From Cyanidioschyzon merolae (lineage: Eukaryota): DNA of 64,000 nucleotides. The stretch lies in NCBI GenBank assembly GCA_000091205.1, contig AP006501.2; one strand, 5' to 3'. Position numbers and translations under genes: made by a program. A model generated the notes under the pieces. The model did no database searches, was not told the DNA's origin, and saw nothing but the letters and a program-made list of their open reading frames with translations. Positions 1,684 to 54,914 of this stretch are shown piece after piece. How positions within the stretch are numbered: position 1 is the first letter of the stretch; the number at the start of each line of letters is the position of its first letter.

Positions 1684-2551
1684 TATCCACGTGTAGCTTT
1701 ACGTGCTATTTCGATACGCTTGACACGAGTTTCAGATAAGATATACGCACAACAGAGCGCGTGTGTTGGAGAATCCACGCGCAGTGGCGAGCGCACGTTT
1801 CACGTTCCCGGGAGCGTTCATGAATCGCTACGCACACAGGCGCCTCCCAGTGTTTTCGAACCTGTCGCTTGTTCGCGCTTTCTGTTCATCCAGGCACAGT
1901 TTGAGCCTGAGAGACTGCCCCACAAAGTTGGATTGCATCAGCTTATTAGGTCCCGTGTCTTCAACATCACATATCGTCTGATATTGATACAGTCTCGGTT
2001 GGTGAACTCCTCGCGTTTGCAGCCTCTGGTTGAACCTAACTTTGCAGGGACTCCTCGAAGTTGTGGCCTCGATGCCGTCCAAGTCTCGTTTGCATCCCGT
2101 TGGGCAAACGCTTTTCATCGTCTGTCTCCCCTCTTCTCCGTCTTGTTCTTCCTATTCGTTAATCGCTCTTCTTTATTCGATGGTCGGTGAGAGAGGATTT
2201 TTTCGGTTTTTTTCCAGCAGCCGGCGATGGCATCCCTGCGGGATCTCCGACTACCACGTCCATGCTTCTCCCCTGGATTCTTTTTCTTCAAATGAGCGCA
2301 CTTCAAATGCATCAGCTACAAACCGCGAACATGCATTCGATGACAAGCACCTGGGTGTGAAACACAACTGAGATGAAAGACCACAAGGAGTATGCTCCTC
2401 ATTTGGCAATAGAGAGCTTGCCTTGGAACGCGAGTTGTCCCCGCAACGCCGTTCGTATTACCTGCCGTGTTGGGCTTACTGTTGAACGAGGCTTTTGTGC
2501 ATTCGTTGCGCAACTCGCGAGTGAGCAAACGCTGTCTAGCTGCCCGCTGCT

Positions 2552-6981: not shown

Positions 6982-8463
6982 TCAGCACACACGAGATGAT
7001 GGTGCACTGCTTTTGGAAGGGCAAAGAACACAAGCAATGCGCTCGAATGCAACTTGTAGCGTTTGCGTATCCTCAACTGCCGAGAAGCAACATCTATACC
7101 ACCCGGGTTCAGGAGCATGGCAAACACGACCCGGATAGATCAACACTCGCGCTTCTCGAAAGAGTCGCTCAGCAAGTTCCAACTCCGCTTCCCAGGTCGC
7201 CTCGCGAAGAAATCTCTGCAAGCCAATCCATACGAAGAATCCAGCCTGGCTGGGATAGATGCGCACCTGCTCTGCCCCAAGACTGGTTTGAATCGCTTGA
7301 ACAGCCACCTGATACGCTTCCTCTAGTCGTCGTTGGTTTGCGACGAAAAACTTGTGCAACCATTGCTCGTCACTCAGCATTCGGCAAAGCACTGCCTGCG
7401 TATCCCGACTGGGCGACGAAAACAAACACGGTGCTCGAATCGCCTGCAACAGAGCCTGGTTCTCCGTAAAGAGAACCCCACATCGCATGCCACTCATACA
7501 GAGGTCCTTACTAAACGTCCATACGACATGCACATCGTTGCCGAGACCCTGGACGGCCAAAACGTCCGCTACGGAACGAAAACGCCCCGCATGGCTCTGG
7601 AAGACCGAGAGCGCGTACGCCTCGTCGCTCACCAGGTGCATGCCATGGGATCGACACCATTGAATGGAAAGCTCTAGTTCTTCTGTCGATAGAATATTGC
7701 CCGTTGGATTCCCGGGACTGTGCAGGAGCAACACTCGCGGTCGTTGCCCGCTCGCTCTACAGGTCCGGTCCGCAGTTTCAAGCGCATCCCTTGTCAGACG
7801 GTGGTGGTTATGGAGCGCTGTTTGTACAGGTACGGGTATGCACTTTGCACGGCAGCTCAGGTCAAAGTCAAATCCCGGATAATACGGTGCCGGAATCAAC
7901 ACGGCATCACCATCGTCACACAGGGCACTGAATACCAGGTCAAGTACAGCGCTTGCACCAACGGCACACAGGTAGTTATCGGGGTTGGCTGCACTTGCTG
8001 GGCCGCCTTTCGAAGCTGCAAATATATGCTCTCGAAAGAGTTGGCTAAGTGCCTTGCGAAAGCGTAACTCGCCGAACATGTAGTCGTACTGAAGGCACTC
8101 GTTGCGCGGCAATACGTCGCTGCGTTCCCGCTGAAACTGGGCTAAGACGGGTCCCGCACTGAGCGCGTTCTCGGCCACCAGCAGTGAGATATAACCATTA
8201 GGTTTTAATTGTGGATCGTATGCGTCCTGTTTCGCTGTAAAGGACCACTCAATCTGGCGTGGCGGTGCACGACTCGCAAGCGCCCTCCCCCGGTCTGAAA
8301 GCGTCTCTGCTGCGCTTTTCAGCACGCTACTCGTCTCTGGTTGTTGCATGCAGACACGTATACTTCGCTGTTGCTGCTGGGACGTAGCTGAACAGAGCAG
8401 CCGATCCCGACACTGAGCGCGAACGAACAAAGCTTCTCGGTAAACACCAGACTGGAGGAACAT
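6982..8463 (-). CDS. Class I/II PLP-dependent aminotransferase, ACC-synthase-like
   Basis: ATG-initiated 493-aa ORF. The PLP-lysine motif 'TFSKDLCMSGMRCGVL' matches ACC-synthase-type 'SLSKDxGxPGFRxG'. Other family blocks are 'NGYISLLVAENALS' and 'LLHSPGNPTGN'. Confidence 0.8.
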   Translation of the reverse strand: MFLQSGVYREALFVRAQCRDRLLCSATSQQQQRSIRVCMQQPETSSVLKSAAETLSDRGRALASRAPPRQIEWSFTAKQDAYDPQLKPNGYISLLVAENALSAGPVLAQFQRERSDVLPRNECLQYDYMFGELRFRKALSQLFREHIFAASKGGPASAANPDNYLCAVGASAVLDLVFSALCDDGDAVLIPAPYYPGFDFDLSCRAKCIPVPVQTALHNHHRLTRDALETADRTCRASGQRPRVLLLHSPGNPTGNILSTEELELSIQWCRSHGMHLVSDEAYALSVFQSHAGRFRSVADVLAVQGLGNDVHVVWTFSKDLCMSGMRCGVLFTENQALLQAIRAPCLFSSPSRDTQAVLCRMLSDEQWLHKFFVANQRRLEEAYQVAVQAIQTSLGAEQVRIYPSQAGFFVWIGLQRFLREATWEAELELAERLFREARVLIYPGRVCHAPEPGWYRCCFSAVEDTQTLQVAFERIACVLCPSKSSAPSSRVC

Positions 8464-8562
8464 CCAGACTCGGCATCTCGAAGCGGTGGATCACTGCGGC
8501 CGACACTACGGCATTCTCCCGAGACGCTTCCATTGCGGTATCGAGTACGCTGATGAAGCGGG

Positions 8563-9256
8563 GAACTTGGCGACTGAGACAAAGTCTTCAACGTAGAAGC
8601 CTCATGGTGCAAGGATCGGGTGTATAAAGGTACGAGATACTGCGAACTTGGCGACTGAGGCACAGTCTTCAACGTAGAAGCCTCATGGTGCAAGGATCGG
8701 GTGTATAGAGGTACGAGATACTGCGAACTTGGCGACTGAGGCACAGTCTTCAACGTAGAAGCCTCATGGTGCAAGGGTCGGGTGTATAGAGGTACGAGAT
8801 ACTGCGAACTTGGCGACTGAGGCACAGTCTTCAACGAAGAAGCCTCATGGTGCAAGGATCGGGTGTATAAAGGTACGAGATACTGCGAACTTGGCGACTG
8901 AGGCACAGTCTTCAACGAAGAAGCCTCATGGTGCAAGGATCGGGTGTATAAAGGTACGAGATACTGCGAACTTGGTGACTGAGACACAGTCTTCAACGAA
9001 GAAGCCTCATGGTGCAAGGATCGGGTGTATAAAGGTACGAGATACTGCGAACTTGGCGACTGAGACAAAGTCTTCAACGTAGAAGCCTCATGGTGCAAGG
9101 ATCGGGTGTATAGAGGTACGAGATACTGCGAACTTGGCGACTGAGGCACAGTCTTCAACGAAGAAGCCTCATGGTGCAAGGATCGGGTGTATAAAGGTAC
9201 GAGATACTGCGAACTTGGCGACTGAGACAAAGTCTTCAACGTAGAAGCCTCATGGT
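8563..9256. repeat. 81-bp minisatellite, 8 full units plus a 40-bp partial unit
   Basis: Units start at 8569, 8650, 8731, 8812, 8893, 8974, 9055, 9136 and 9217. The consensus is 'GGCGACTGAG(G/A)CA(C/A)AGTCTTCAACG(T/A)AGAAGCCTCATGGTGCAAGG(A/G)TCGGGTGTATA(A/G)AGGTACGAGATACTGCGAACTT'. The array lies between the 5' end of the aminotransferase gene and the 3' end of the permease gene. Confidence 0.95.
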
Positions 9257-21816: not shown

Positions 21817-22744
21817 GGTGACGACTGGAGCGATCATTCGCTGCCGTCGCTGCTGCAGCTGATTTTTTACCTCTGACGAGGGGTTTCTATTGTATTTGGA
21901 ATCGCGTATTGCGGGATGGATATTACGATTTATGTAAGTGTTCATCAGGATGCTGAACTTCAAGTTCCATGACAGATACTTCCTTGCGGATGTACTGGTC
22001 GTTTCGGACGTTCTATCATGAGTCTAGTGCCTGCAGTACGCATACGCGTTAGCGCCGAGACCGCTGGAGCGGATATTTCATAGAGCCCGAACGGCTTTGC
22101 CATACGACTGGGGCGGGGGGTGTTGGCCCAAGGCATGATTCACTGGACATCGGGGTCGGAGCGTAGAATCATTCTGGGAGCGTGCAAGCTGTGCAGACGC
22201 ACTGCCTGTGGCAGCAGCGCGAAGCGATATACAAGGAGTACACTGCGACCAGGGCGATGCCCAGACGCTGGCTAACTGCTCGAAATCCCAGAATAAGCGG
22301 CGTTTCTGACGAGTTGCCCAGGTCTCAATAAAGCTCCTGCAACTGGGGGCCTGAAGCACAAGCCTGGCAGGCTCGTGCGACTCGCGGGACCTTACGTCCA
22401 GAAGGTAAACTCTCGACGATACGGAAACCTTTGCCCCCTTTTATCGTTTGTCGTAGAGGGGCAAAGAAAATGTTATCTCGCTACTAGTTTGTAACTAGTC
22501 TCTGTCCTTTTGGGTATATCATGCGCTCGATACGCGCACCTCCATATCTGGCAGTCACAAGACCTGACGTGTATCGCGCCGATGAAGGGAAACGCGATCC
22601 TGATCATGAGCGTGTAGCTCCAACGTACAGGACGCATTTGCGTTGAGGTCATGCGAAAGTATAGTATTTCATCCCAGATGAGTTTCGACCCTCAATGGAG
22701 TGTATTCAAGTGATTTTTCGCGGTTTATAGTAGTAGCGTTCAAA

Positions 22745-23138
22745 GAGCATTCTTTTCCAAAAACAAAAAATCCAAGGGACAGGTATCGACCTGGATGTTG
22801 GGAATCCTTAAGGGCCATCATCGTCGAATTCGACGAAGAATAACCGAAGAAGAAATCCTCTTTTCGTCGACTATCGAGCGAACATGAGCGAACGATGCGG
22901 ACGAAGAAGACCGAGAATGGATGTAGGCGAGAAAGTGTGTGCCCGACGAGACGATGACGAGACTGTAGTGGCACAGAGGGCGCGGGTTCTGGGAATCCTT
23001 GGAAAATTGCGTTCAGCCAGAGGCAATAAACGTATGGTGCTCGTGAACCGAGACTTTAACGCCGTCATCAATATCAGACGATGGGCGGTGCTGAAGACGA
23101 GACACGAGGAGCTTACGCGATCTAGCTTTGTGGAGTAG
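22745..23138 (+). pseudogene. TnpB/Fanzor-like nuclease relic R1 (C-terminal fragment)
   Basis: In one frame it reads 'LFVDYRANMSERCG' (22860-22901) and then 'LVNRDFNAVINIRRW' (NRD... at 23046-23081). This matches the TnpB pattern of TSKxC plus Zn ribbon followed by RuvC-III 'RDxNAAxNIRR'. An in-frame stop lies upstream at 22809-22811. It is collinear with R6 at a constant offset of 19,692. Confidence 0.5.
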
Positions 23139-24125
23139 CCTCTCATGGGCGATGTGTACAGGGAGAAGCTGAAACCGATAGCAGGTCGCCTGTGTAGATA
23201 GGCTGGGAGGCGTCTGCACGTGGGTGTCAGTTTACGATCTCGAGGCGACGCCTCCAGTGGTGCGGAAAGGCCGTTCTGTCTGCGCTAATGCGAGACGCGT
23301 GGTGGTTACCTGGGCCCTGCTTTTCCCTTATAGGCTATTACGTGAGCCCTTGGGCACCTTCAGCACAGAAACGTTTCCAGTCTGCAACGTGGCGGGATAA
23401 GCGAGTCGAGCTCGGAGCGCTCCGTGTACAATCACGCTGTCTCCTTTCGCAAGTTACGATGCGTACCTGTTTCGCGGCTGGATTTTTGGCACCAAAAGCG
23501 CTGTAGGTACCGGGTTCAGGTACAGTTCCATCTCGCCAGATGCTGTTGGTGTCGAAGGATCGGCTTCAGGAGGAGGTAAGCGTCCGGCATTGCGTACCAA
23601 GAGGTCTGCGACGAGGCGTTCATCGCGCAGTTCGTCGCATCAGCAGGCGGGCACTGCTTGTAATCGACTGCCTGAGCGCTTCATTGAGACGATTCATAAA
23701 AGCCATCGTCGCCTTCAGATATCACTCTGAGAACTGTTTGGACGCTGCAGAACGATTCTCGGGATGCGCGAAACATGCCCAGAGTCGGCACCTGGCATGG
23801 GGTAGGGTCCTGGTCTGTTGTGGTGTAGGATCCTTAAATCTAACCAGGTTTCTGGCGATGCGCATCCGCTTCTGATGACCACGAAAGAGGCCTCGTTCGC
23901 TTCACTAGCGCATGTGTGTGTTCGGCAAGTCCCAGTCAAAATGCCCAACAGGTATAGAGGCTTGCTCATTCCAAAGGAACAGCGGTTATCGAGTCTACAG
24001 TGGGCGCTCGCGCCACCGCGGGCTCATTCTCACACGCTCACCGCAGAGGTTCGTTTCCTAACGAGCAACTCGCGCGTCTGCAGGCGCATTCTCCAACGAG
24101 ATGCCGACCCTGAAAACGTATATTT

Positions 24126-28924: not shown

Positions 28925-30487
28925 CTATCGCCCGCGCCCGAGTTCCTGCGGTGACACGCGAAGCGTGATCCAGGCGGGAAGCCCCCACTGCGGATCCGAG
29001 ACTGCCATCGCTTCCACAATTCGCTCATTTGCCTGAAGTGGATGACTCTCGGGCCAGGTCTGGAGCGTCGTCACGCTCGCGTAGCCCTCTCGGATGGCGA
29101 CCAGGTCGGAGTTCACGAAGCCGTACAGCGGCTCTGGGCGCCCTTCTGCGCCAATGATGACCATTTCGGCAGAGTCTGGTTTCTGTCCAGCACCACTTCG
29201 AAAGACATCACGATAAAAAATCGCTCCTAAATGCGTTGTACGCCATCGTCCCCAATGCCAACGGGCAGGGAAGTTCACATTCAGTACCAAGTCGCCATAA
29301 CAGAACGCACTCCACACCAGATCCAAAGCATCCTCTGATGCAGCATCTTCGTCTGCTGCGACGGATCTGTTTACCTCTGTGGCAGGAGCCAGTGCTTTGC
29401 CACAGACATCACAGTGCCGCCGAGGCGTGCACCGCACACTGCTTGCGGTACCGGATGCCGTAGAGGTCTGCAGGCCAGGTCTCGGTCCATGTTCCGAGCG
29501 CCCGTGCAGGTGCAAACTCCTACACGGATCGAGACGTCCAGCGTTGGGTGGCGTTAACGGTAATCGTTCCACGAGCAGGGATACCAGAAACGCAGCGCCT
29601 TGAACGCACGCCTCCTGCGAGTCGCGTTGCAACGGTTCGCCTGCGAGACTGAAGGCTACCGCTGGGAGACCATAGAATCCGGCTTGTCGTGCACCGGAGA
29701 ATGTGCCGCTATGCAAGATATCTTGAGCGAGATTCGCGCCCAAGTTCGGCCCAGAGACGACTACGCGTGCGCATTTACCGAGGCGGGCGAGCAGTCCGTT
29801 CGGCTCGATAGCCGTGATCACACAGTCAGCCGGCGAGCCTGCCAGCGAGTACACACCTGTCTTGAGATCCGCTCGGTGCACCAGCTCCATAGGCGTCGCA
29901 AGTGTCAGTCGGTGGCTGCACGCTGATTGGTTTGTTTTGGGTGCGATCACTACCACGTCGAGTGCGTACTGTTCCTCCAGCGCCGCGGCCAAGCGCAGCA
30001 GCAGCACGGACTCAACACCGTCATCGTTCGTTAAGAGAACACAGGGTTTCAATTCAGTTGTTGTCGTGGGGTGCTGCATTTTCCAAAGCGCACCCCGCTT
30101 TGTACACGGGCCGCCAGGCAGACACTTGAGAAGCACTCGGCTGGTACCTTGGTCGCGTTGCGTGCACCAGTGCCTAAGACGCTGGGCTCGAGTGCGGAAA
30201 CGCCAGGGAGTGGACCTATTTTTCCAAGTTGCTTGCAGCGCAACGTACATCAAGTCATCCAGCACTACAAGTCGTTTGAATACCACCTGGATAACCTGTT
30301 CTATGCACTCGAATAGACAGCAGCATACAGTCGCGACACCTCGACGAATTTGCGTGCTGGGGCGCTCTCTGTGGAGCTGGCGATAATGTTCCTTGAAATG
30401 AATGCCTCCGCATGGCGGTGCTTCAACGAGCGTTTTCCCGGAAAGGCGGCGGCGGCGGCACGGTTGCGGACTTCTGGGAATACTCAT
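28925..30487 (-). CDS. surE: SurE-family 5'/3'-nucleotidase with N- and C-terminal extensions
   Basis: SurE core 'VLLTNDDGVESVLLLRLAAAL...VVVIAPKTNQSACSHRLT'. There is an ATG at 30487. An alternative ATG at 30079 ('MQHPTTTTELKPCVLLTNDDG') would give a conventional N-terminus. Confidence 0.8.
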   Translation of the reverse strand: MSIPRSPQPCRRRRLSGKTLVEAPPCGGIHFKEHYRQLHRERPSTQIRRGVATVCCCLFECIEQVIQVVFKRLVVLDDLMYVALQATWKNRSTPWRFRTRAQRLRHWCTQRDQGTSRVLLKCLPGGPCTKRGALWKMQHPTTTTELKPCVLLTNDDGVESVLLLRLAAALEEQYALDVVVIAPKTNQSACSHRLTLATPMELVHRADLKTGVYSLAGSPADCVITAIEPNGLLARLGKCARVVVSGPNLGANLAQDILHSGTFSGARQAGFYGLPAVAFSLAGEPLQRDSQEACVQGAAFLVSLLVERLPLTPPNAGRLDPCRSLHLHGRSEHGPRPGLQTSTASGTASSVRCTPRRHCDVCGKALAPATEVNRSVAADEDAASEDALDLVWSAFCYGDLVLNVNFPARWHWGRWRTTHLGAIFYRDVFRSGAGQKPDSAEMVIIGAEGRPEPLYGFVNSDLVAIREGYASVTTLQTWPESHPLQANERIVEAMAVSDPQWGLPAWITLRVSPQELGRGR

Positions 30488-30514
30488 GTGCGGTTGACAT
30501 GGACTATCGAACGT

Positions 30515-31845
30515 CTCGCTCTGTTCCTGCTTTTCGGGGGCTTCCGAAGTTGTTTTAGATGCACATCATCGATTGAGGACCTGCAGCAAAGAGTGCTGAC
30601 AGGTTCATACGTAGTTCAAAGACGCTCAGCGGGTCTTTTCGGAGTGGCTGTTTCGATGCGGTGCAGCTGGGCGGATTCGCTCCGTCTCGGGGATCGAGAT
30701 GATTCGCGACGCTCGCGAACCAGGAATCGTGAAATCACGGATAGCATGATCCAGTTCGTACGGCCAAGGCTCTACGTTTCACTTTTCCTCAGGTCTAGCA
30801 CGCTTCGAGATTAAGATCTTGATGTTTCATGGCAAAGATTTGGCGCAGGTTTTCGCGCTGCTGGATGCATAAGGAGAAATGCTCGACATCTTCCATGGAT
30901 GACTTGTTCGCGAGTGCGTACCAAAAGTTGGCTGTATTTGTCGCATTCAATCATGGATTATTTTCGAAATATGAACCCTCAGTTTGTGGCCGTTGGCGAA
31001 ACGGATTCCACGGTAGCACGATATCTCTCACAGGATCTGCCACCAGACGCTCCCATCTATCGTGCTTTTCATAGCTAGGTATCTTGGACTGGGGTTTGAG
31101 GTATCGCATCGACCTCATTCAATGGAGAATGCGTCGTCGCTTTGCACGAAGGAGGCCTGAACGGATCGAAACTTTTCGACTTGTTCTCCAGGCGGGATTT
31201 TCATTCCGATGCTTGTTTCATGACGGACGACATCGCTTGCCGCAGATTCTCCTATCGAATGGAAGAGCGTGCGCCTGCTTGTGCATCTGCCAGAGCAGTC
31301 GTCAATGGGATCGCCCAGGTAATGCCAGTGCTCGTCTGGTGCGGTACTGGGCGCGGAAACGAATTAGGGTATCGGCAGGAGCGCTCTGTAACCGTCCAGG
31401 GCATCTGGTGAGCTATGGAGTGCGCCTCGACGCAATACGGGGCGGTCCACAGGGTAGCAGGTGTGATGTACGGATCGAAACGCCTGACAACCGCCATGCA
31501 TGACCGTTGGGAAAGGAGCACTCGGGCCATAAACAGAGAGAATGACAATGACGAGCGAGGCGTAGACTGCAACCACCGCCTGTGCATGACGTGCGTAGAC
31601 GACAACCCGAAGCAGTGCCATCGAGACCCAAACGCTGACATTCACATTACAAGGGTGCTGACAACGGAGCTGCCGGGAAACGAGACACCGGGCATAAATG
31701 GAACCGCAAGTCAGAGAGAGGAATACGAAGCAATCGCTTAAAGAAGCCCGTGAACACTGACGATAATCACCCTGAGAACAGACACAAACTTTACTGCCAA
31801 CGACCGCGTTGGACGACTTGCTTCCTTCTTGACTGATATTCATGC
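30515..31845 (+). pseudogene. TnpB/Fanzor-like nuclease relic R2 (near full length, multiple stops and frameshifts)
   Basis: The ordered motifs are 'ALLDA*GEMLD' (Asp codon 30864-30866), 'AMECASTQYG' (from 31415) and 'CNHRLCMTCVDDNPKQCHRDPNADIHITRVL' (HRD... at 31619-31654). It is collinear with R8 at offsets of 17,836-17,889. Confidence 0.5.
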
Positions 31846-31860
31846 ACCATCCAAATGATC

Positions 31861-32952
31861 CTACACCCGAAGGAGGAAATCGTGTTGGCAATATCTGAAA
31901 TCCCTGTTTTGCTGGAACGATTCGAAACCTGTAGGAAATCGGGCCGCGAACACTGCCTGTCCGCACTTGTTTTTCTTTTTTCGTATGACGCAGCGTCGCG
32001 CATCTTGTCGCGGGTCACCGAATACGCGATCGCGATCAGCATCAAAACGAGCATCTATGATACTGCACCGGATTTTCAAATAACACGGCTCACATTGCAG
32101 TCTTCGCTTGGGCATAATGGTTCCCTGGAACGACCATCCGCGTGCCGAGCGTACCATGGGTGCCCAGAGCGGCGCTTAGAATGCTGGTTCGTATGCTGCA
32201 CCAAGACGAAACGACTTTGGCGTACTCTTGAGGTCCTCGGCTCGAGGGCGAACCCCCGGGTACCTCGTCGTCAGGCAACGGAGCCATGACCACTCGATTT
32301 GCGACGCGGTCGTAGCTGCTCTGACACGCTGACGCATCGAACGGAGCGTATGGTAGCGATCCCAGTGCCAATGGAACCGAAGCTGCTCGAGTGCCGCGCG
32401 ACTACGCGAGCTTTCATGGTGGACCACGGGCTGCTGGTGCGCGCTGTTGTTTTCGGGCCCGAAGAGAATTCATTGATTGGTGCATTGCGTTCCTTTTTAA
32501 CAACGAGTCCGTTCCTCTATATTTCCAGCGAGAATTGGCGCTGCGAGATGGTTTCTTTTGAACAGCTCTCTTGAATCAGGCCGAGCTCGGTTGGCCCAAT
32601 CGCTCCCCGGAAAATGAAGGACGCTTCGATGCGGCCCCCGGTTCTGGTGCTGCGGTGAAATCGTCTGCGGCTGCAGAACCGGCCGTAGACACCATTGTGA
32701 AGCCCAGTAACCAGCGCTGGCGTCGTTCAAAACTCAATGGACATAAAGATACAGGGTCGTGTCACCGGTCTGATGGTAGTGCTTTCCAAAATGCGTCGCG
32801 AGGTCGAGACTCACCTGTAGCAACTCCTTGGCATCACGAGAAGCATGGATCTCGCGGAGCGTCTGGCCTCGGGTGACGGCTGTAACGGACGCACATCCAT
32901 CGCAACTGGTGCAGATGGATCCAGCGGACGCGTATCCTTGGCCTGAGGCCAT
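31861..32952 (-). pseudogene. TnpB/Fanzor-like nuclease relic R3, tail-to-tail with R2
   Basis: The minus-sense fragments appear in this order. 'SICTSCDGCASVTAV' (Asp codon at 32899-32901) comes first. 'VSLDLATHFG' follows about 32 aa later. Then come 'TIMPKRRLQCEPC' and 'KCGQAVF...FQQNRDFRYCQHDF' (31876-31908). The fragments lie in three different frames. Confidence 0.35.
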
Positions 32953-33584: not shown

Positions 33585-34419
33585 GATACGCTATACGTGC
33601 ACAAGTCAAATGAATTCGATCGTCAAGACCAATATCGTGTACGCAATGGATCCGAAACAATGCACCACGAAAGGCGCTCTCGATACATGGCACGCTCAGG
33701 CGCCCAATTTGGTACCACGCGATCCGAGCACGCGCGGAGGCGTCCCCCACGGATCGGCGTCCTGCATTTGTCGAGACGCCACGAAACGAATGGGCGCACT
33801 CGTTGCAGGACAATTTTGTGATCGTGGACACGGGCGAGGCGTGCGTCGCGGATCGCCTGGGACCCTCAGTCGAATGCGTGCGTGTGGTGTGTGGGTTCAG
33901 GTTGTGATCGTCGACACGGGCGATTTTTGGAGCGAGAATTTATACGCACCAGGGATCCCTGATTGCGCGATAGAACGTCAGCGATCGGGAACGCGTCCGT
34001 CGATCCGCCAGCCCCCGAGTTCCAGTGTCCCTAGTAGACCGCGCGGGGTTTCTGATCATTTCGTTGATTCCTCTGTGCGCCGAGTCTGCGATGAGTGCCC
34101 GTGATGGCAGGTGTAGCGTCGGTGCGGACGCTGCACGGAGATGCAGTCGTTTTTTGCCATGCCCGTTAGGGCATCGTCTTGAGGTGTCGTGCACTCGAAA
34201 AGGGAGTCGGGTCTCTCTCCTTCGAACTGTTATCGAAGCGTGTGCGTGTGCAGACCTGATTTCGCGGGACAAGACGTGGGAGACAACTCGTTCGTTCACG
34301 TAAATGCATGGCGGAAACGAGTTACGCCTCTGCAGTCGTGTGTGGAATGAGTTGACGGCACGTGATGCGGGCCCATACGGCGCATTCGACCTGTGTGAAG
34401 CTACACGGTTCGCTGGACT

Positions 34420-35830
34420 TGCGTTCTGATGCGTTTCGCTGGACTCCGCACCTAAAAGGCAGAATATGAGTTTGGTGGCCACCAGCGAGCGTTGCGACTC
34501 GGTTGGAGACCCGCGAGCGGCCAGGGCTACACCAGGCGTGAGCGGTCACCCGTCATCCTCGAAAGGAACATCCAGAAGCTGCAGTCCCTCGAAGAAGCAG
34601 CTGCCTTCCCTATGTTAACACAGGCACTGTAAGCGTGCCAGCGTTTCAGTGTTCCTGTCCCTACAGTAGGACCAGTGTGATTTCCCGTGTGCATGCAGCG
34701 TTCCGATACGGCATGAAGGCGGTGCTAGCCAGAACGCACCGACGCGCATGCTGGCGAGCCAGTGGCTAGCTCGAGCATGCTCCGGGGATTCCAGCACCTC
34801 CCACAAGCACTTGCGGGTCCATGCTAGGCCCTAGTCCCGGTACAGAGTCCAACTAGCGCTGAAGACTCGAATTTTTTTCTTCTTTGGTGTTCCCACTGTT
34901 TTTCTTGGACCATACATTGGAGTCGTCGTGAGCCTTCCCTGTTCATGAGAGAACGATTGGAGGCTATCCTCGGCGAGGAGCCGCTTCGTTCAAACCTGCA
35001 TCGATCTTGCCCAGGTACTCTTGTAATGCTTTGGAGCAGATATAGTGATTCGGTCGAAGCAGATGCGCGTGCTGGGGTGGTATAGTCCAAATGCACACTC
35101 GGCACTTGGTCGCCATCGCATCTATCTAAGGTCCATTTAGTTCACGTCCAAGCGCTAGGGAACCGGGCGTTGGGCTCTGTACCGAGCATCCTGCCATGAT
35201 TCGTATCGTCCTGCTGGCAGCGGTCTGTATACACGAAGCGATTGCGGGGTTCAGGGCGGACCACGAGGCGCCCCAGGTCGCTGCCTGTACGTTACACGTC
35301 CCGAATGCCGTGGTACAGCTGCATGCGGACACCGCGAGGTCCGGCAGGATGTACGATACACGTCCTGAATACCCTGGTACAGCTGAATACGGACATCGCG
35401 GGGTCAGACAGCAGCATGCGCGCGAGCGCTATGCACCTCTTCATCTTGATGATCATCTCGCCCAGATGCTCGATAGCAACCGGCGTCGATACTAGGCAAA
35501 CTCTCCGGTTACAGGCGGCTTTCGGAATTTCCTTCCCATAGGCAAGCGCCACGAGCGGTCGCGGAAACGCTGTGAATGGCCGTGAGTGACCATGACCCGG
35601 AACTTGGATGCATCGATATCCATCTCTCGACGATCTGCCTAGGCACTGACTTGTTGCATTCTTTCAGCGAATGCTTCCGGGCACGGCGCCAGCAATACGA
35701 CAGCATCAATGAGTACGAGCCTCGCGATGCAGTCTTCATAACGATGCCCCTCTTGATCCCTGTATTATGGATCTCCGAGGTCCATCCACTGAAGCTCCGT
35801 TCCGCATTGCCAGCACCGATCTCGATGACT
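34420..35830 (-). pseudogene. TnpB/Fanzor-like nuclease relic R4
   Basis: The minus-sense motifs are 'VIEIGAGNAE' (35800-35829), 'VAIEHL' (35463-35480, RuvC-II-like) and 'SHWSYCRDRNTETLARL' (CRD... at 34630-34665). It is collinear with R5 at offsets of about 5,064-5,073 from at least 34420 to 34960. Confidence 0.5.
35287..35405. repeat. Tandem duplication of a 64-bp unit (two copies)
   Basis: 'GTACG(T/A)TACACGTCC(C/T)GAAT(G/A)CC(G/C)TGGTACAGCTG(C/A)AT(G/A)CGGACA(C/T)CGCG(A/G)GGTC' occurs at 35287-35341 and 35351-35405, inside R4. Confidence 0.85.
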
Positions 35831-39104: not shown

Positions 39105-39479
39105 GAGCTTGACAAGCTCGTGTTCCCAGCGTCCCAGGGTATGCTGGCTGCGGGATCACGGTGAGCGCAGCGCGCCGCGCAGCGTCGGTGCGGGCGCTGC
39201 ATGTAGACAGAACGGCTTTTCTAGACTGCAGAGGGCGTTGGCTCGAGGGGTGCTTCACCCGACGTAGAGTCGGAATTCATCATCATGATACGATCAGAAA
39301 GTCTGCGGATGCAGGCTTGTCTTCGCTGCACGGCACGCTGGAGAAACTTGGTTGTTAGGATGAATTCTGGGAGCCGCCTCTCTCCTTCGTGCTCCTGCAA
39401 GGAATGCGTTGTTGTTGGTTGGCAATGCGGGTTTGTGGTTGACACCCACCCACAGTGGGTAGGCGCAGAAAGCGCACTG

Positions 39480-40494
39480 TGCCCGTGTACGCATCCGCTT
39501 CGCTGGACCTGCTGCCTAGAAGGTAGCATGTGAGTTTGTTCGCCACTCATGAGCGCTGAGACTCGGTTAGCGGACCATCAGTTGCCAGTGCTACACTCAA
39601 AGTGATTGTCCGGCCTTCGCCTATCACGGTGATGCCCAGCTGCTGGTGTCCTTCAAGCAGCTCGCTGCGCTCCTGCTTCCAGCGCGGGCACTGTAAGCCT
39701 AACTATGTCAGCGTGTCGGGGATCTCGTTTCCACAGCAGGGACAGTGTGATTCCCAGAGTGATTCCAGTGTTCCTATGCGGCTTAGAGCCGGTGCTGCTA
39801 GTCAGAAGCCACCAACGCGGATTTTCGCGAGCCACTGAGTACCTCGAGCAAGTCCCGGGAATTCCAGCGCCTCCCACCAGTACTTGCATGTGTATGCGAG
39901 GTTGTAGTTCCGGTATAGAGTCAAGCCAGCGTCTCGACGCTTGCGCTTATCCGCGTCTGCTGTAGACCACGGATGCGATTTCTGGACACAAAATTATGGC
40001 TTGGAGGCAAGTGCTCTAGCTTTGGACATGGCTATGTACGCACAGACGCCGCCCCTTGTCATGAATTGCAGGATTCTTTGTGTTCCGGGTAAGCGCGATC
40101 CTCACCATAACGTACCGGTCACTCCACTCCCGGGTTCAGCGGTATCTGCAATGACGCGGATACCGGGACAGCACGCTGCACAACAATGCGACGCATCGCT
40201 GTTGGTATCTGTCGACAGCCAGTGCTGCGCATGCACTACTTGTATGAGCGCTCGCAAAATGAAAGCCACCCCCTGCGTCAGCCGGATACGGCCACGGGAT
40301 GTACTGTTTAGGAAAAGAGGTCGTTCGTATCCGGTTATGGTTCTCCATCCGATCTGGGTCGCGATCGCAGCTTCCAGAATTCCGCGCCCTACAAAGCTAT
40401 GATGTCCTGGAATCGCTGGAATGAATTTCGTCAATTGGCTCCACAGCACAAAACCAATCGTTTTTTTCAGCATCCCGCAGCACGATCGAACCAT
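39480..40494 (-). pseudogene. TnpB/Fanzor-like nuclease relic R5
   Basis: The minus sense reads 'SHCPCCGN', then a 1-nt frameshift, then 'WKRDPRHADIVRL' (39695-39733). This compares with the TnpB pattern 'CPxCG...RDxNAAxNIxR'. An upstream 'STDTNSDASHCCAACCPG' lies at about 40185. It is collinear with R4. Confidence 0.5.
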
Positions 40495-41284: not shown

Positions 41285-41739
41285 CGATAAGCAGTTGCTG
41301 CGTGCGATCGCTGCAACGCTACACCAACGTACAGAGGTGAACGTCTATCATAGAATCTGACGCTACACACCAGTGCAGAGACTGATGCGTCCCAGGCGTT
41401 CGCGCGTTCGATCTCGAAAACGATGACTGTTATGTGCTGTTATATCCGTAGATGTCCAGCCAAAATTTTTTCAACTCGAGACTGCTCCACCCATTCTGTG
41501 GTGGATGGCAGGCGATCGACTCCACAATGCAATGTATCGTACAGATCATAGACGAAATCTCTCTAGGATGTATTCTGTGCGAAACTGTGCAAGGAGGACT
41601 GTATTTCTTGTTCAGGTGAGTCATATCATAGTGCTTAGATGGTTGAGGATTACTGAAAGGCACATGTAGATGCGCTTTGCGCAAAAAATATTATGAAAGA
41701 CTGCTCATCGTCAATGATAGAAAACGAACCGTTGATCAG

Positions 41740-42840
41740 CATATGGAAAGTAAAACCAACGATCGTAGACACAGCAAGTGTCTCTGTTTCTCAACAGCTT
41801 GTTCACGTGGTACTCAAAACACTGGGGTACAGTCACAACAAAGTCCGCGTTCACGCACGACTCTCTTCCACAGAAATCGCAGCGACAGCGTTCCTGAAAC
41901 GTCGCGATCGCTATGATACAGAGAAACGTCGGTTATTTTTTTCAGTGTATGAGACTTGCTTCAGAGGATACGGTCGGAACGTCCATGGGTATTTGCAGAG
42001 AGGGAGCCCGTTGTGTCTATGACCGAACTCGAAGAGATACAGGTTATCATCTTCTATTCTAGCAGCAGTGGATCCATTTGGTGGCCTCAGTTTCGCTTGT
42101 AAAGAAGTCTCGTAGAACAGCAGCAATGCTGTCGACTCGTTAAAGACTTTTCCCCGGACCTCTGGCGACGTTCTTCTACTGTACAACGTAGAATTTCAGC
42201 ATTCACTTTGCGTTTGGGCTTTTCCGGATTCTATCGGGGTGCAGCTGCTTTTCACTCTTCCGTCCTCTCCGAGATTCAACGCTATAAAGAGGAGTGGTTT
42301 CTATGGTGAAACGCGTTGATCGGTCCATTGTACGAATCGCCGAGGCGTTCAGGACACGGTGACGCCAGGGCACATTTTGTCTGTCTGCCGCGAGTGCCTC
42401 TCCCGCTGCGAAATTCCTCACCCGAGTGCTTAAAGAGGTGCATTCATTTTCAAAAATAAAAATCCAAGAGAAGGCTATACACATGCAAACTGGGTATTCA
42501 GGAGTGCCATCATCACTGGATTTGACGAAGAAAACAGTAAACAAGGCCAATCCCAGAGGAACAGGAGAAGACCAAGAAGCACAAGCCGGAGGCCTGACGT
42601 CAATGGCCGCAAGAAGGACCACAGTACAACGAGATCGTAGTGAAAACCTGTCTTTTCGGGTATTTCGAGGATCCGTGCAAACAAAAGTTGCGAAATGGCC
42701 ATCAGAAACCGTGTCGAGTCGTGCGCCATGAGTTTTATGGACGCCTCTTCAGGCCGAATGCATTTGGTTAAGGTCATGCAACGCGACGTGACGGGCATCA
42801 AAATGGGCGAGGTTCCAGTGGAGTCTCTCGACCAGATCTT
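41740..42840 (+). pseudogene. TnpB/Fanzor-like nuclease relic R6 (heavily decayed)
   Basis: It has an N-terminal 'IVDTASVSVS' (41762-41791). Its C-terminal part is collinear with R1, with anchors 42440/22747, 42506/22814 and 42524/22832. The RuvC-III position has decayed to 'NRVESCAMSFMDASSG' (42707-42754). Confidence 0.35.
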
Positions 42841-43344
42841 CATTCGCCACTTGATGTTTCGCACAGGGCAAACGTCGAGGAGAAATGAACGAGTGCATGC
42901 CATTCACGAAAATGACGCCGAATATCGCTTCGACGGTGCTCGACACAAGCTTGACTCGTGTATTTAAGAATACGGGGCGATCAAGTACCTCATGAACCCG
43001 AAGAACCATTTGACTATGACCCTTGAACGCATCATCATACGCTTCATGTTTGCACTCTACCCGGGCCACTCTCGCATCGGGACATGGGCCATCATCATCG
43101 GCATTACGAACGATCGCCAGCATGAACGGGAGATCGAATTCATCGACAAGAAGACACCGCGCAGGAGAAAGAATGAGGACTCTGTGATCTGTGCCGCTAT
43201 TCAAGAGCACCGTGCGGTCTTGGGGCTGGTCAATCCAGCAGAATAGGTATCCGATATGAAAAAGAAAGATGTTATCCTCTCATCCTGCGTTATTTCGTGT
43301 TTCTGAGTCGAGAACTCGAATGCAAAGCCGAAATATAGCAGAGT

Positions 43345-44250
43345 GTGGGAAAAATAGTGACGGGGAAACGGAAGGCTGCGCTTCTGGGGAAACGCTTCAA
43401 CGTGGTTCCAATGTGCAACATCAAGTCACATATCGTGACTATCTACTCCAGAGTCCTGCACGGCATCATGAGGCAGCTCTACCCGGAGTTCAATCGACGG
43501 AAGATAGAGCTCACCGGTGAAAACCGGGAGACTCATTGGAAGAGTATCTTCGATTGCAAACGTCTGAAAACGAGCAAGAAAAAGGTATTCGCGGGCAGGA
43601 TCGAGACCGATGGGGTCTCCATACGTGTACACTACCAGCGGTTGAAGGCGGGTCGTCCTATTGTGTCCACGGCTTCGCCGTGGCGAACCATGAAGATGAG
43701 AAGGAGGTGGATCCTGCGACGCAGTGACCTATCCCTGGATAGGTCACTGCGTCACTATCAACCCGAAGCACAAACCGAACACGAATATCCATGCACACAG
43801 ACGTCGCCAACGTTGCATTCTAACAGCAAGCATCCGAAGCGCAACCTCTTCATCATCATCGTAACACCCCGCGGTGTCTCGATTCGACACAGACCAGGCG
43901 TCGTTTTCATACTGGCGGTTGAGCGCAGCGACAGAGGCTTTTATGTTGCGTGCGAGACGCACCGAGGCCCGCAGCACCCATCCCCAGGGCGTGTACTGCA
44001 AAGCGAACTGTAAACCGCGCTGCGAGGCATCCGATGCGAAGCACCCGAACACAGGCCCCCGGCACCTGAGCACCCTGGAATCCGCTCAAATATGTCCAGT
44101 TCGAATCGGTACCTCTGGGTGCGCTCGCACCGACACCATGTACCCGTTGGGCAGCAGGATCCCCGCAGACACTCGTTTACGACCAGTATCTACGATAAAC
44201 GCGCCATCGACGAAAAAAAGCAGTTTCAGAGATACAGTGTGTTCCGCTGT
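43345..44250 (+). pseudogene. TnpB/Fanzor-like nuclease relic R7 (N-terminal half best preserved)
   Basis: '[29 protein letters not shown]' (TDGVS at 43606-43620) is followed after a frameshift by '[12 protein letters not shown]' (Asp codon 43710-43712). A possible 'INAPSTKKSSF' lies at 44195-44227. Beyond 43760 the assignment is weak. Confidence 0.4.
43718..43753. repeat. Perfect 36-bp palindrome (17-bp arms, 2-nt centre)
   Basis: 'GACGCAGTGACCTATCC CT GGATAGGTCACTGCGTC', read directly from the sequence. It starts 6 nt after the RuvC-I-like Asp codon of R7. Confidence 0.95.
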
Positions 44251-48142: not shown

Positions 48143-48403
48143 CGTCCGAGCTAGGCACAACTTGACGCGCACGGTACGGAACAGTGATTGCGTTCCAGGC
48201 TGCAATCAGATGAGGCTGCTCGTTTAGCCACACCTGGCGAAGAATTGGGTTGAGGTTGCTCTGCGGGATCTTTTAACGCTACTTTCAATCCGTGGGCTTC
48301 CTGTATCACGAAACATTACCGACCATCCGCGAAGCGCTGGTCGGCATCGTGTGTGCGAACGATGCGCGACACGCGTATGAGACGAAAATGGAACACTGAA
48401 TAG

Positions 48404-49675
48404 CTCGCTCTGTTCCTGCCTTTCAATTTTTTGGCTTTCTTAGATGTGCAGCAATAGGTGCTTATGGATGCATATCTAGTTTAAGGATGCTCGCTGCTCT
48501 ATTCGTAGTGGCGCCGTCCACTCGGTGGCGCTGGAATTCGTTACGTCACCGGAATCAAGATGATTCGCAACGCCTTTGAATGAGGGTTCGTAAAAGTACC
48601 GATATCTTTATACAATGCATACATATGAGACTCCGATACTCAACTTAACTCTCGAGTAGTGTGCTCAGATCGCGCATTCTGCGAGTTTTCGATCTATCTG
48701 TTTCAAGCAACTCGCGGGCGGGGGATTTCGTGCTGCTAGACGGAAGGGGAAATGTGCTCGAGGTTGTCCCTAGACAACATGTTGAAAAACTCCTTCTTAA
48801 GGTTCACTGAACTTGTCACATCAGAAAATCGATTTCATTCGAAAGAGAAAATGTCCTCCGGTCATAGGCCATGAGCGAGACGGCGTTCCATAGCAGCACT
48901 ACGTATATAACAGAATACGCTCGGAGAAGCCCACGGGTCTTCTGTTCTGTACGATAGGGGATGGTGGACTCGGACTTTAGCCACCACAACGATCGCTTGG
49001 AATGGAATGTGCGAAACTGCTATGCACGAGGGCGGCCTAGACGCATCCAAATTAGTCGTCTTGTTCTCTAGCCTGGATATTCCACCGGGTGCTTGTTTCA
49101 TCGAGAACAGCATCACTTGCTACAAATCCCTTATCAAATGGAACAGATTGCGCTTCATCATAGGGTACTAGACTGAATGCGGAAACCAAGCAGAGCATTC
49201 GCGGGTGCCTGCGGTGGTCTTCAAAGGCATCTGGCGAGCAATGAGGGACACGTTTCCGCGGCACGTTCGAGTTCTCGGAGGAGGACGAGGAGGAGGAGGA
49301 CGATGAGGAGGGCATGCGACGAAAACGCGGGAATATATGACAACACCCAGGTGTCATAGCTCTGAAGCGCGTCCCCGAGTTGTCCACAAAGGAGTTTGTA
49401 GATCGCAGCTTCCGCCTATGCATGACATGCGTTGACAACAGCCGGAAGCGACTTTATCGAGAATTTCACACTGTCATCAGCATCTTGCGACGGATGACTA
49501 CAGAGCTGGGGGTAAACGAGCGAGGGTCGTACTGAAAACCGGAAATGAGCGTGAGGAGATGAAGCCAGTGCGGGGAAAAAATCGCAAATGCTGATGCTGG
49601 TATCAGTGAGAAGAGACCCAGACTTTTACATACGCGCCCGTTTCAACAAAGCGGACCTTTTCATCTCTATACTGA
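48404..49675 (+). pseudogene. TnpB/Fanzor-like nuclease relic R8 (near full length)
   Basis: The motifs are 'VLLDGRGNVLEVV' (48730-48768, RuvC-I-like), 'RVPELSTKEF' (49368-49397) and 'RLCMTCVDNSRKRLYREFHTVISILRR' (LYRE... at 49452-49493). A frameshift separates the RuvC-I and C-terminal parts. An (GAG/GAC)n insertion lies at about 49270-49310. Confidence 0.5.
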
Positions 49676-50252
49676 CACAGGTTTAGATCCGCGCATATGA
49701 GGCCGCGGAGCAGGTTGCTGACTTTGTTGCTGACTCGTCCACGCTACGGCTTGTGGAGGCAGCATAAACGATCCGCTCTGCGAAACGATCCGCGACGCCA
49801 CCTGTGCGTCTCAGGCACCAAGTAGCAGGTTCACAACACGGTGCCGAGCCCGTGGGGCATCTGCGGCTTGCCACTCGGCCAATGTATGACGCCAACTGTA
49901 CGTTCAACGAGTGATGCCAAACGTATCCGACATCGGATGTCTGCGCACCGGTAGTTCTCTTTGATAGGGCAGCGCAACACGGGTCGCACCAGCGAGCGGA
50001 CGTTCATCCGGTGTACATATGCAAGTGCGCGAATGTGGAGGTTGCAGTTAGAGGCACGTTCATTTCACAAGCCACGGAGCTATGCGCACAGATGGTGTAA
50101 TTCTCCTGGTACAAAAGATACGGACCGGAACTGTCCGTAACATATCCTTCAGATGCATGCAATTACACGACAAACGAAGCGCCGTCATCCGTCGTGATTC
50201 ATCTTCATTCATGCACAAGGTCTTCGCGCTCTTTTCGCGCTTTCGTAGGCGC

Positions 50253-51642: not shown

Positions 51643-52584
51643 TTAAATGGACAGTATGGGTACACATGTGGCGAGACGCTCGTAGACGGCATCCGAGCAA
51701 TGGAACGAGCTCAGGACGCTGACTCCTCGCTAGACACGAAAAATTTAGGTCGCTTTCCCCTGTGATCAATACCAGCCTATGCTGGTCTTTTCTGCGGCTG
51801 CATCCTTTGCTACGCTCTTACATCCGGTTTTCAATACCCTGGGTGGTACGTTCCCTTCAGACAGTTGTGAGCAGATGAAGGATGATCACGGCAGTGTCGT
51901 AGTCCCGAAATCGCTGCTCTTCGCTGTTGTCGTCGAATGTCATGTACACGTGCAAGTTGCGATCTGCACTGTGCTTGCCATATTCGTCTCCTTTGGACAC
52001 AGCCTCGGTGCGCTGTTCGATGCGGTGACACGCGATTTTGGCCAAATGGTCTAATACGTTCGCAACGCAAACGTCCTCCTTTGAATGCCACTCTGTTTCA
52101 CGTGCACGCTTGCTGCATCGCTTGGTACATGCCTCTGGTGGATACAGGAGGCCGCTCTCGAAACCGTTCTCGGTTTCCACGCCCGGCGCCGCACGCTACC
52201 GTCACGAGCTTCTTCTGCGCAATCCAATCGAAGGGTACGCTGGCTGCCGCACACCCAAGCGCACGCTGTCCCGTTCGATAACGCACGATCCGCTTGCCTC
52301 AACGGCCCTGATGACGCTCTAGATAGCGCTAAACCATTGAGAACAGACTGGATTTTGTAGGATTATCTGTATTCTTTTGTCTGCGGTTTTCCTAATAGAT
52401 GAAAATCAATGGAACGTCCACTGTCCGTGATGAAACATGCACCAGTGCGATCATCCAGGATGGAGAGCAAGTCGACACACTTCGATTCGTCTACGCTCCA
52501 TTCTTGGAAAGCAGTGACGTACTCTCCACTGGAAGCGATTGATGCGAAGGCTGATATCCGAGTCCAAGACGCTTTCCGCTGCAA
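51643..52584 (-). pseudogene. TnpB/Fanzor-like nuclease relic R9
   Basis: The minus-sense motifs run in order. 'ACFITDSGRSIDFHLL' (TDSGRS at 52411-52428) is first. 'VTVACGAGRGNRERF' (about 52170-52195) is second. 'TFDDNSEEQRF' (about 51908-51937) is third. 'FHCSDAVYERLATCVPILSI*' (51643-51687) is last and parallels R8 'LYREFHTVISILRR'. Confidence 0.4.
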
Positions 52585-54914
52585 ACAGGCAGCACGAGCG
52601 CCTTAGAGACCGAATCCCACGAAAGGCGGCATCCTGTTTTGGATTGCTATTTTGGCGATGGACACAGCGAAAGGTTTTTTTATGTTTCAGTCGGAATCGA
52701 TGATTTGACGTGACCGATTCAGTGAACTTTCCGCGTGCGCTGTTGCACAAGTCTTCGAGAGACAAAGCAGCGTTTCTTGTTTTGTCGTCAGTCCAGCGAT
52801 GCGAAATGCTGCGCCCGCGAATTTCCATGAAACAGAAAGATCGATAACTTGAAGAATGCGTGCAGTGAGCATGCTACTCGTAAAAAGAGGAGAAGCGTGG
52901 AGGCTTCTACGAACACATTTGATAATGCTATCGATTATTTTATGAATAGTCTCTCGGGGCCGCGCAGTTCCGCTGGAGGTGAGAGAAGACAACTCATATT
53001 TCTCTACCTGTTCTACAGTGCAAATCTCCAAACGATGCCAATTTCATCACAGACAATATAGCGTTCCACAACTCCTATATGGAAAGGGATTGCGTGTGCA
53101 TGCGCGGGCACCGGACGGAAGAACTGCCGCAGGAATCGCCTAGAAGAAGCCTGTGAACGTCGGGTCCGGCCCCGGGTGCGGCAATGGTGCAGGGCATCAA
53201 GAGTAGGATCCTATATCTGTCTAGGGCATATGTAGACGAACGAAGAGAGTGTACACATGCAACAGGCCAGTCTAAGTCGGAGGATAAGGTGTCATGGAAG
53301 CATGGGAATACCCGATTAGAGCCAATTGTCACCGCTATGAAGGGCGCACCCAGGCTGTATACAAAGAAGATGAAAATGGTAAGCAAAGCGTAGCTCGTAA
53401 CTTTTCTATCTTCATGAAATGCTTGCTAAGCAGCCGGACGCAGCGATCCCGGACTTGAACACAAGGCAATCAACGTGCTTCAACTGCTGGCATGGGCACT
53501 GGAGGGACTGAAGAAATCACCACGTTTGAAGCAGGATACAACGGCCAGGGAAAAGCAGTCGCATAGGCAGGCGTTGATGCCAGTGTGAGGGGATACAAGC
53601 TTTGGCGTACGGGCATCAGCCTGGAGACCCGCCCCATTCTATGCCACCACTGGTGCCGACAGCACATGCGTCACTGCGAAGCGCCCGATCATTTCCCTGT
53701 GAAGCAAATCGAAAGCATCTAACCAAGTAGACATGTTCCCGAAAGCATCAGAAGATCATATGTTGGATTCGCGAGTTCCATCGTCTGTGCATAGACGAAT
53801 GCAGCGACAGCGACATCGCCCAAAAGCCTCCTATCCAACGCTACCGGATATGAGGACTCGTACCATGCGCGGCAACAGCAGCACTGTCCTACAAACGGTT
53901 TCCCATGGTATGAACCAAATCCAACGAGACCCCTCCTGCACGTGTCCGTGAGAACAAGCTTGTCTCGCCAGGGAACCGTGGTCCGTACGAGGCATTCCTT
54001 GACAGAGGTCTGGGACGATTGCGTGCGTGCTGGTCCAAGTGCTGCCGACACCGCCGCTTTTCTGTGTCCATATTTGACATGGTTCGGGCGAGTGGGTCAC
54101 GGGTTGGAGTCGGCTGCGCTCCTCACAAAACGGCCTCAGACCACGTACTGGTTACACCGTGTGCAGACGTTCAGCTCCCGATGAACGCTGCAGGCAGGCC
54201 ACCAGCAGCGCTTTCTGGGGTGTGTAGCCCTGCTCGAGCGAAAACACGTCACCTCCCGGGAAGGCCGCTAATCTTTCGCGCAAGCACTCCGTACCTCAGC
54301 GCACTACCAGGGGTCTTTTTTTGACGTCAAGTATACCGCCCAGTCCAGCGCCTTCAACCCGACGGCGAGCGTACCCTGGCGATATTGCGAAAGCCTCGTC
54401 CTACCGTTGCACTCGAGACCTGGAGCGGTTGAGTTGCGTCCCAGCCAAAGTTCTCTCCGTACGACGTCTCAGCACGATGCTGCCACTGAAAGCAGCAGTC
54501 AATCAAACAGCAAGTCCAGGTCCGATGCGACACCTGTGCTATCCGCAACAGCAACGTACTCGGCACATCCCAACAATGTCGACACGTACTCTGAGCACTA
54601 GCACGCTCAACTTTACCATATACAATAGATCTCGCTCGTACACAAGTCCTAGTGATGCGTCCCAGAGTGAAACGCCCTTCACACGAGCGTCAGCAGCAAC
54701 GCGGACTCGCCTTCTGCGGTGCCTGCGCTCGGCGGCGAAGGGGTACCCTCAACTCAACGCCTGGTGGCATCTTCCGTTTCCATACGCATTCAAAGCGAGT
54801 GTTCTTGTCTACAAGCGTACTCGCTTGGACGTTGTTCTTTTGCTTTGGAAGCTGCGTCTCTACAAAGCACTTTGTGAGCACCAGGGGCGCAAGATCTGCA
54901 CTCGGTACCGACTC

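Follow-up and report, generated by a model that had tools for sequence, protein, structure and literature searches.

A decayed Tc1/IS630-like element with a Fanzor1 tail, very probably a non-autonomous transposon copy, upstream of SurE in Cyanidioschyzon merolae

The window analyzed here, a 64,000-nt stretch of C. merolae contig AP006501.2, has a G+C content of 56% and nearly intron-free genes. The decayed repeat R2 occupies the 5' flank of the SurE gene, as an earlier reading made from the sequence alone (the sequence-only reading) had proposed. The positions that define this part of the locus are as follows.

28925..30250, minus strand: SurE coding sequence, annotated in C. merolae 10D (441 aa, BAM82973.1)
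30370..30371: TG dinucleotide deleted in natural strains L024 and L026; this 2-bp deletion puts the ATG at 30487 out of frame
30481..30482: TA directly outside the R2 5' end, putatively one half of a target-site duplication
30483..31844, plus strand: R2, read here as a non-autonomous Tc1/IS630-like element, now decayed, that carries a Fanzor1 tail (profile match 30515-31793, termini from multi-copy end alignments)
30485..30487, minus strand: fortuitous ATG of a 520-aa ORF, formed by nt 3-5 of the transposon end; not the SurE start

The longest SurE ORF (28925-30487, minus strand; 520 aa), whose closest relatives all come from Cyanidiophyceae red algae, contains the SurE domain from residue 150, with the domain beginning after Met137 (30079). 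R2 had been said to lie about 28 bp from the SurE ATG, a distance that is right for the ATG of this longest ORF at 30487, but that ATG is not where SurE starts. The annotated protein, BAM82973.1, equals residues 80-520 of the window ORF (441/441 identical) and starts at Met80 (ATG 30248-30250). In the SurE homologue alignment, three sister-lineage proteins begin (MF[IL]V...) in line with Met80 (MYVAL...), the 79 codons upstream of it have no match, and for L024 and L026 gene callers report SurE products of 441 or 453 aa. Annotation and conservation agree on 30250 as the true start. This leaves 232 bp between the start codon and the end of R2, which lies upstream and is oriented divergently; the view that R2 abuts the SurE start codon is wrong. 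Between Met80 and the conserved Met137 (30080-30250), about 57 codons encode a basic, acid-poor stretch that has a similar length in the three sister lineages and no SNPs among seven strains, consistent with an organelle-targeting presequence. One 3.9-kb metagenome contig, L025, matches 28651-28556 at 100% over its nt 1-96 rather than the SurE upstream region. The likeliest explanation for these 96 nt is chimeric assembly, with a rearranged haplotype as a less likely one.

The homology between R2 and R8, a second repeat in the window, proved robust. The four anchors on which it was first proposed (30515/48404, 30697/48558, 31211/49091, and 31577/49413) are all exact, and each string occurs once. 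In a BLASTN comparison, one of the checks that had been suggested, a continuous diagonal joined 30582-31274 to 48447-49153 (63.5% over 718 nt, blastn E 2e-16), and a second collinear piece joined 31562-31613 to 49398-49449, lengthening to 31562-31792 and 49398-49626 under softer scoring. Global alignment gave 64% identity in ungapped columns, collinear over approximately 1.3 kb and within the 60-70% estimated by eye, and the Smith-Waterman local score was 148, compared with a shuffle maximum of 17 (n=30). This collinear alignment, together with a family profile, supports the description of R2 as a decayed repeat paralogous to R8.

The family profile, built from the first three copies and used to scan the window, spans 30515-31793 of R2 end to end, and R2 is full length by the standard of its family. 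The limits first given for R2, 30515-31845, were close to those found here: the left edge moves outward by approximately 32 nt to 30483, and the right edge lies at 31844 or possibly 31869. The window contains 3.5 copies of this dispersed, approximately 1.4-kb family, hereafter family A (R2, R8, R9, R9b, and relatives). The copies other than R2 are these.

48372..49683, plus strand: R8, full-length paralogous copy (profile match 48404-49627)
51690..53056, minus strand: R9, third copy (profile match 53056-51739)
53056..53655, plus strand: R9b, 3' half of the element only (profile match 52996-53603)

R9 and R9b stand head to head with a common junction near 53056, an inverted pair that may derive from nested insertion or from inversion. 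R9 itself carries an insertion of approximately 115 nt directly past the second Asp motif of the transposase relic described below and is missing approximately 150 nt near its 5' end.

Outside the window we found at least eight further family A copies: R10 and R11 (one locus), R12, R13, and four decayed ORFs. A pattern scan of metagenome contigs chiefly recovered the three window loci again, at approximately 99% identity, from natural strains of C. merolae, plus a single new locus, the one bearing R10 and R11; when conceptual translations served as queries at the protein level, decayed ORFs of at least six additional copies came to light. Copies are approximately 70-78% identical to the consensus and 51-61% identical to one another. 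None of the individual copies has a usable ORF, and tblastx between copies found similarity in every frame, with stops, which leaves no present-day coding frame. Mismatches between copies gave no signal of 3-nt (lag-3) periodicity, Pfam searches of R2's own ORFs and of guided single-copy translations returned only noise, as did PHROGs, and neither a PDB profile search nor an Rfam scan of the whole 64-kb window produced a match.

Copies that lack intact ORFs and are collinear, differing by small indels only, are also what would be expected if R2 and R8 were pseudogenes of a duplicated cellular gene. However, at least 12 dispersed copies share common termini beyond which their flanks are unrelated, truncated and head-to-head copies occur, and the ORF restored by the consensus is that of a transposase. 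We consider an origin by cellular gene duplication extremely improbable.

The transposase ancestry of family A emerges from a consensus that is a plain majority of eight copies, with no manual editing and no more than those eight copies beneath it; an earlier consensus query with hand-edited motifs was excluded from the evidence in its favor. The unedited consensus contains a 254-codon open frame at nt 104-866, which matches Pfam DDE_3 (PF13358; 6.3e-8, 33.0 bits, cutoff 28.6), HTH_33 (1.6e-3), and the NCBIfam IS630 family transposase profile (NF033545; 7.8e-11), the last collinearly over profile positions 49-260 of 299. For a search of a 5.8-billion-protein database, a single residue of the consensus protein, the G of AIGET, was changed to D. 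This edited protein matched two intact transposases: P0035 (261 aa, DDE_3; E 1.4e-36, 38% identity over the full P0035 length) and P0038 (342 aa, HTH_Tnp_Tc3_2 plus DDE_3; E 4e-17, 28% identity), the latter with a D141/D219/E254 triad, that is, DD34E with Tc1 spacing. The corresponding features of R2 are listed here.

30580..31328, plus strand: transposase relic (HTH plus DDE_3), corresponding to consensus nt 104-866 and interrupted in R2 by stops and frameshifts
30989..31003, plus strand: first catalytic Asp motif, AVGET (AIDET in relatives), D replaced by G in R2
31220..31237, plus strand: second catalytic Asp motif, MTDDIA (DNIAFH in relatives), under the anchor GCTTGTTTCAT

P0035 also matched window copies directly (R9, 3.5e-9; R8, 1.5e-4). 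Its match to R2 was not significant (E 0.17), and Pfam found nothing in R2, so the assignment of R2 rests on its nucleotide homology to family A; the consensus protein matched R2 at E 4.5e-42 (tblastn). The HTH plus DDE_3-type transposase by which Tc1/mariner-IS630 membership is judged is present in the consensus; R2 alone gives no significant match at the protein level. The first catalytic Asp is retained in R10 (AIDEM), in P0032 (PIDETE), and in P0035 and P0038 (AIDE), and the second is present both in the consensus and in R2, where the anchor that marks it belongs to the best-conserved nucleotide block. Alignment of the consensus with the intact transposases also shows a decayed PPYSP motif. 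A complete DD34E triad is absent from family A: the first D survives in some copies only, and the third residue, E, is missing because the transposase homology ends at the YSP motif, where a Fanzor frame begins. An incomplete catalytic triad fits a non-autonomous derivative.

This second frame, at consensus nt ~859-1255, starts exactly where the transposase homology stops. Read through one consensus stop, it encodes KKPVIVGYGTGRGN...WEHLTTARCHRC...FHLCMKC...YRDFNAAINIL. The C-terminal signature of Fanzor/TnpB proteins consists of E, [TS][TS]xx, a C4 zinc ribbon, x(5,50), and RD (Bao & Jurka, PMC3627910); it is present in the consensus and partly decayed in R2. Against an HMM built from eight Fanzor1 C-termini (supplement of PMC3627910), the consensus frame scored 47 bits, versus a shuffle maximum of 7.9 (n=500), and it also matched PF07282 (8.2e-5) and positions 344-388 of 389 in the NCBIfam guided_TnpB profile. 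Single copies scored weakly against the same HMM: 22 bits for R10 and, in guided translation, 8.7 bits for R2 (R2 shuffle maximum, 4.3). In R2 the tail comprises the following.

31322..31715, plus strand: Fanzor1/TnpB C-terminus relic (consensus HMM score, PF07282, guided translation)
31340, plus strand: GxG motif, CGTGRGN
31481, plus strand: decayed TSxxCxxC, RLTTAMH
31577, plus strand: second CxxC, RLCMTC
31619, plus strand: RuvC-III RD, HRDPNAD

Only approximately 130 C-terminal residues are present, and the RuvC-I Asp and N-terminal half that mark a full-length Fanzor are absent. The Fanzor part of family A is a gene fragment rather than a Fanzor gene, and what precedes it is the transposase relic.

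An antisense ORF (275-304 codons) was first favored as the main frame of the family. It was dropped, since the antisense frame gave no matches whereas the sense frames did: the 304-codon antisense open stretch (consensus nt 454-1366) had no database match, and the 200-aa antisense ORF of R2 (31364-31966) had no Pfam match. This open stretch probably follows from the codon structure of the sense strand.

The termini of family A are better defined on the 5' side. In five of six copies the aligned 5' end is directly flanked by TA, which fits Tc1/IS630 targeting; at the 3' junction TA occurs in two of five, and R2 has CA there (31845-31846). The 3' boundary of R2 is uncertain by approximately 25 nt, lying at 31844 or, following weak inter-copy similarity, extending to ~31869. 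The latter was the first choice, on account of a CACGAGTG-like motif present in both R10 and R9; 31844 fits the decay of the alignment better. An inverted-repeat scan found no terminal inverted repeats (TIRs), and local tests on single copies did not exceed shuffles; in fixed register, the two ends of the consensus agree at only 13 positions out of 26 (P ~0.014).

Composite mariner/Tc1-Fanzor1 elements have been described: PUl-1 of Pythium ultimum and PGv-1 are approximately 3.4-4.4 kb long with TA duplications, and in them Fanzor1 follows the transposase in the same orientation (Bao & Jurka 2013, PMC3627910). Family A shares with them the order of transposase then Fanzor1 on one strand, a TA at the 5' end of most copies, and a tail with RuvC-II E, TSxxC4 zinc ribbon, and RD motifs. 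It differs in its length (approximately 1.4 kb versus approximately 3.6 kb), in having neither the C-terminal part of the transposase, catalytic E included, nor the first ~75-85% of Fanzor1, and in that TIRs are not demonstrable; its relationship to PUl-1 is only distant (pairwise E 1e-3 and 8e-4). Compared with Tc1-like DD34E/IS630 transposons generally, among which P0035 and P0038 are its closest intact relatives, family A has the same HTH plus DDE_3 layout and the motifs AIDET, DNIAFH, and (decayed) PPYSP, but all of its copies are dead, and its founder already lacked the third catalytic residue.

Within C. merolae, Nozaki et al. 2007 reported 26 non-LTR elements, eight transposase-related elements nearest to bacterial transposases, and a ~3.2-kb repeat in 253 copies with a truncated ORF like WSV486 of WSSV (PMC1955436). 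Bao & Jurka reported Fanzor1 in the WSSV genome and described CMe-1A, a C. merolae Fanzor1 element of 3,169 bp and ~150 copies without TIRs, left unclassified (PMC3627910). Taken together, these descriptions imply that the WSV486 repeat is most likely CMe-1A.

R2 could in principle belong to CMe-1A, the ~3.2-kb WSV486-like Fanzor1 repeat of 150-253 copies (PMC1955436, PMC3627910). Both have a Fanzor-type C-terminus with an identical RuvC-III motif (RDFNAAINI), CMe-1A fragments are abundant in the window, and both families consist of dispersed decayed copies of similar age (~75-80% identical to their consensus) in the same genome. Nevertheless, blastn of the CMe-1A 5' 910 nt and 3' 159 nt against the family A consensus found no similarity, and the CMe-1 protein, through which alone the central CMe-1A DNA was compared, matches the consensus over only the 11 residues of the RuvC-III motif (E 0.016). 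A transposase relic, and a TA next to the 5' end of most copies, distinguish family A from CMe-1A, which is unclassified, with neither a transposase nor TIRs; both CxxC pairs survive in family A but are lost from CMe-1; and the family A profile gives no match on the CMe-1A copies of the window. Membership of R2 in CMe-1A is therefore very unlikely.

CMe-1A/TE-N2_CMe fragments lie at 21874-22770 with 22938-23225, 1837-2381 (minus strand), 33939-34211, 39176-39525, and 32183-32247. With such fragments frequent in the window, the repeats that the sequence-only reading numbered R1-R8 as one series mix at least two unrelated families, family A (R2 and R8) and CMe-1A. One of the fragments is an internally deleted CMe-1A copy, with the 5' 900 nt at 78.5% identity and Fanzor residues 625-729. 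Beside CMe-1A 5' fragments, and upstream of actin-like and UbiA genes, a further repeat pair (34429-34858 and 39493-39931) shows 67-69% identity. A tandem array of 81-bp units (8563-9256; ~8.5 copies, ~96-97% identical) lies inside long minus-strand ORFs (6982-8463 and 8319-9239).

Variation among natural strains and comparison with a sister species bear on whether R2 has acquired a function. R2 is present in all 11 natural-strain contigs that reach the locus. Across seven strain contigs, R2 had 13.2 SNP columns per kb, within the range of 12-19 seen in the rest of the intergenic DNA, whereas the SurE core had 4.3; on these small counts, R2 polymorphism is neutral-like, with no sign of constraint. 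In the sister species (SurE 66% identity), the gene order of a 170-aa gene followed by SurE is retained, its syntenic 21-kb locus contains no detectable family A sequence, and its spacer is 0.65-0.9 kb shorter. R2 would either have inserted after the split from the sister species or have been lost there later.

Alternatively, R2 may have been co-opted, as a SurE promoter, enhancer, or 5'-UTR or as a functional non-coding RNA gene. Its fixation in 11/11 strain contigs, its end 232 bp from the SurE ATG, and reports that C. merolae repeats are transcribed and marked with H3K27me3 (PMC1955436, PMC5405695) would be compatible with such a role. On the other hand, its SNP density equals that of other intergenic DNA, the SurE gene of the sister species runs without the element, no Rfam family matches, three other copies reside in unrelated contexts, and the argument from proximity was built on a false start codon. 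Co-option is improbable, and the promoter idea draws no support from polymorphism or from the species comparison.

R2 is, very probably, a fixed inactive copy of an approximately 1.4-kb non-autonomous C. merolae DNA transposon that arose as an internally deleted Tc1-Fanzor1 composite. The junction of a truncated transposase with a Fanzor1 C-terminus is what points to an internally deleted, non-autonomous relic. The ancestor would have been a composite Tc1/IS630-type (DD34E) transposon with a Fanzor1 gene downstream of its transposase, in which an internal deletion cut the transposase immediately ahead of its third catalytic residue and fused it to the final ~130 codons of Fanzor1, creating the founder of family A. 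An intact transposase presumably mobilized the copies in trans, with TA sites as the apparent targets, and the copies would then have decayed neutrally to ~25% divergence from the consensus. One of them, R2, oriented divergently from SurE, would have landed 232 bp upstream of that gene's start codon, later than the sister-species split unless it was lost there. The existence of the family, its coding ancestry, the true SurE start, and the neutral-like polymorphism are shown, while the deletion origin, trans-mobilization, and TA targeting are steps that we infer; a full-length progenitor with the same nucleotide sequence was not recovered.

A second, distantly related transposase-Fanzor arrangement lies elsewhere in the window. 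At 41693-42289 a Tc1-like transposase relic was detected by tblastn with P0035 (E 4.8e-12) and with the family A consensus (E 6.5e-9), and it is followed on the same strand (42529-43724) by a CMe-1 Fanzor1 ORF fragment (residues 18-419, ~70% identity) that ends at a 36-nt palindrome (43718-43753). Across 41532-43753, the usual CMe-1A 5' region is absent save for its last ~90 nt (42440-42532), and G+C falls to 45-50%. This stretch may represent a form of the unclassified CMe-1A element that carries a transposase.

For SurE function, R2 offers nothing new, and R2 itself is, by all appearances, an ordinary dead non-autonomous DNA transposon of known architecture. Its analysis nonetheless corrects a tempting mis-annotation, in which the longest SurE ORF takes its ATG from a transposon end, and separates the intergenic relics of a very compact genome into at least two unrelated families, one of which receives a superfamily (Tc1/IS630 with a Fanzor1 remnant). 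The C. merolae literature consulted names only eight bacterial-like class II elements and the unclassified CMe-1A (PMC1955436, PMC3627910); family A may already be deposited in Repbase. For Fanzor biology, family A adds a red-algal example of transposase-Fanzor association, a second one in the C. merolae genome beside the arrangement at 41.7-43.7 kb. Family A and this arrangement raise the tentative possibility, which we regard as rather doubtful, that the Fanzor1 (WSV486) repeats of C. merolae, which make up ~5% of the genome and have been reported as TIR-less and of unknown class, are carried and mobilized by Tc1-like DD34E transposons. If this is true, the main repeat class of the C. merolae model genome would gain a superfamily.
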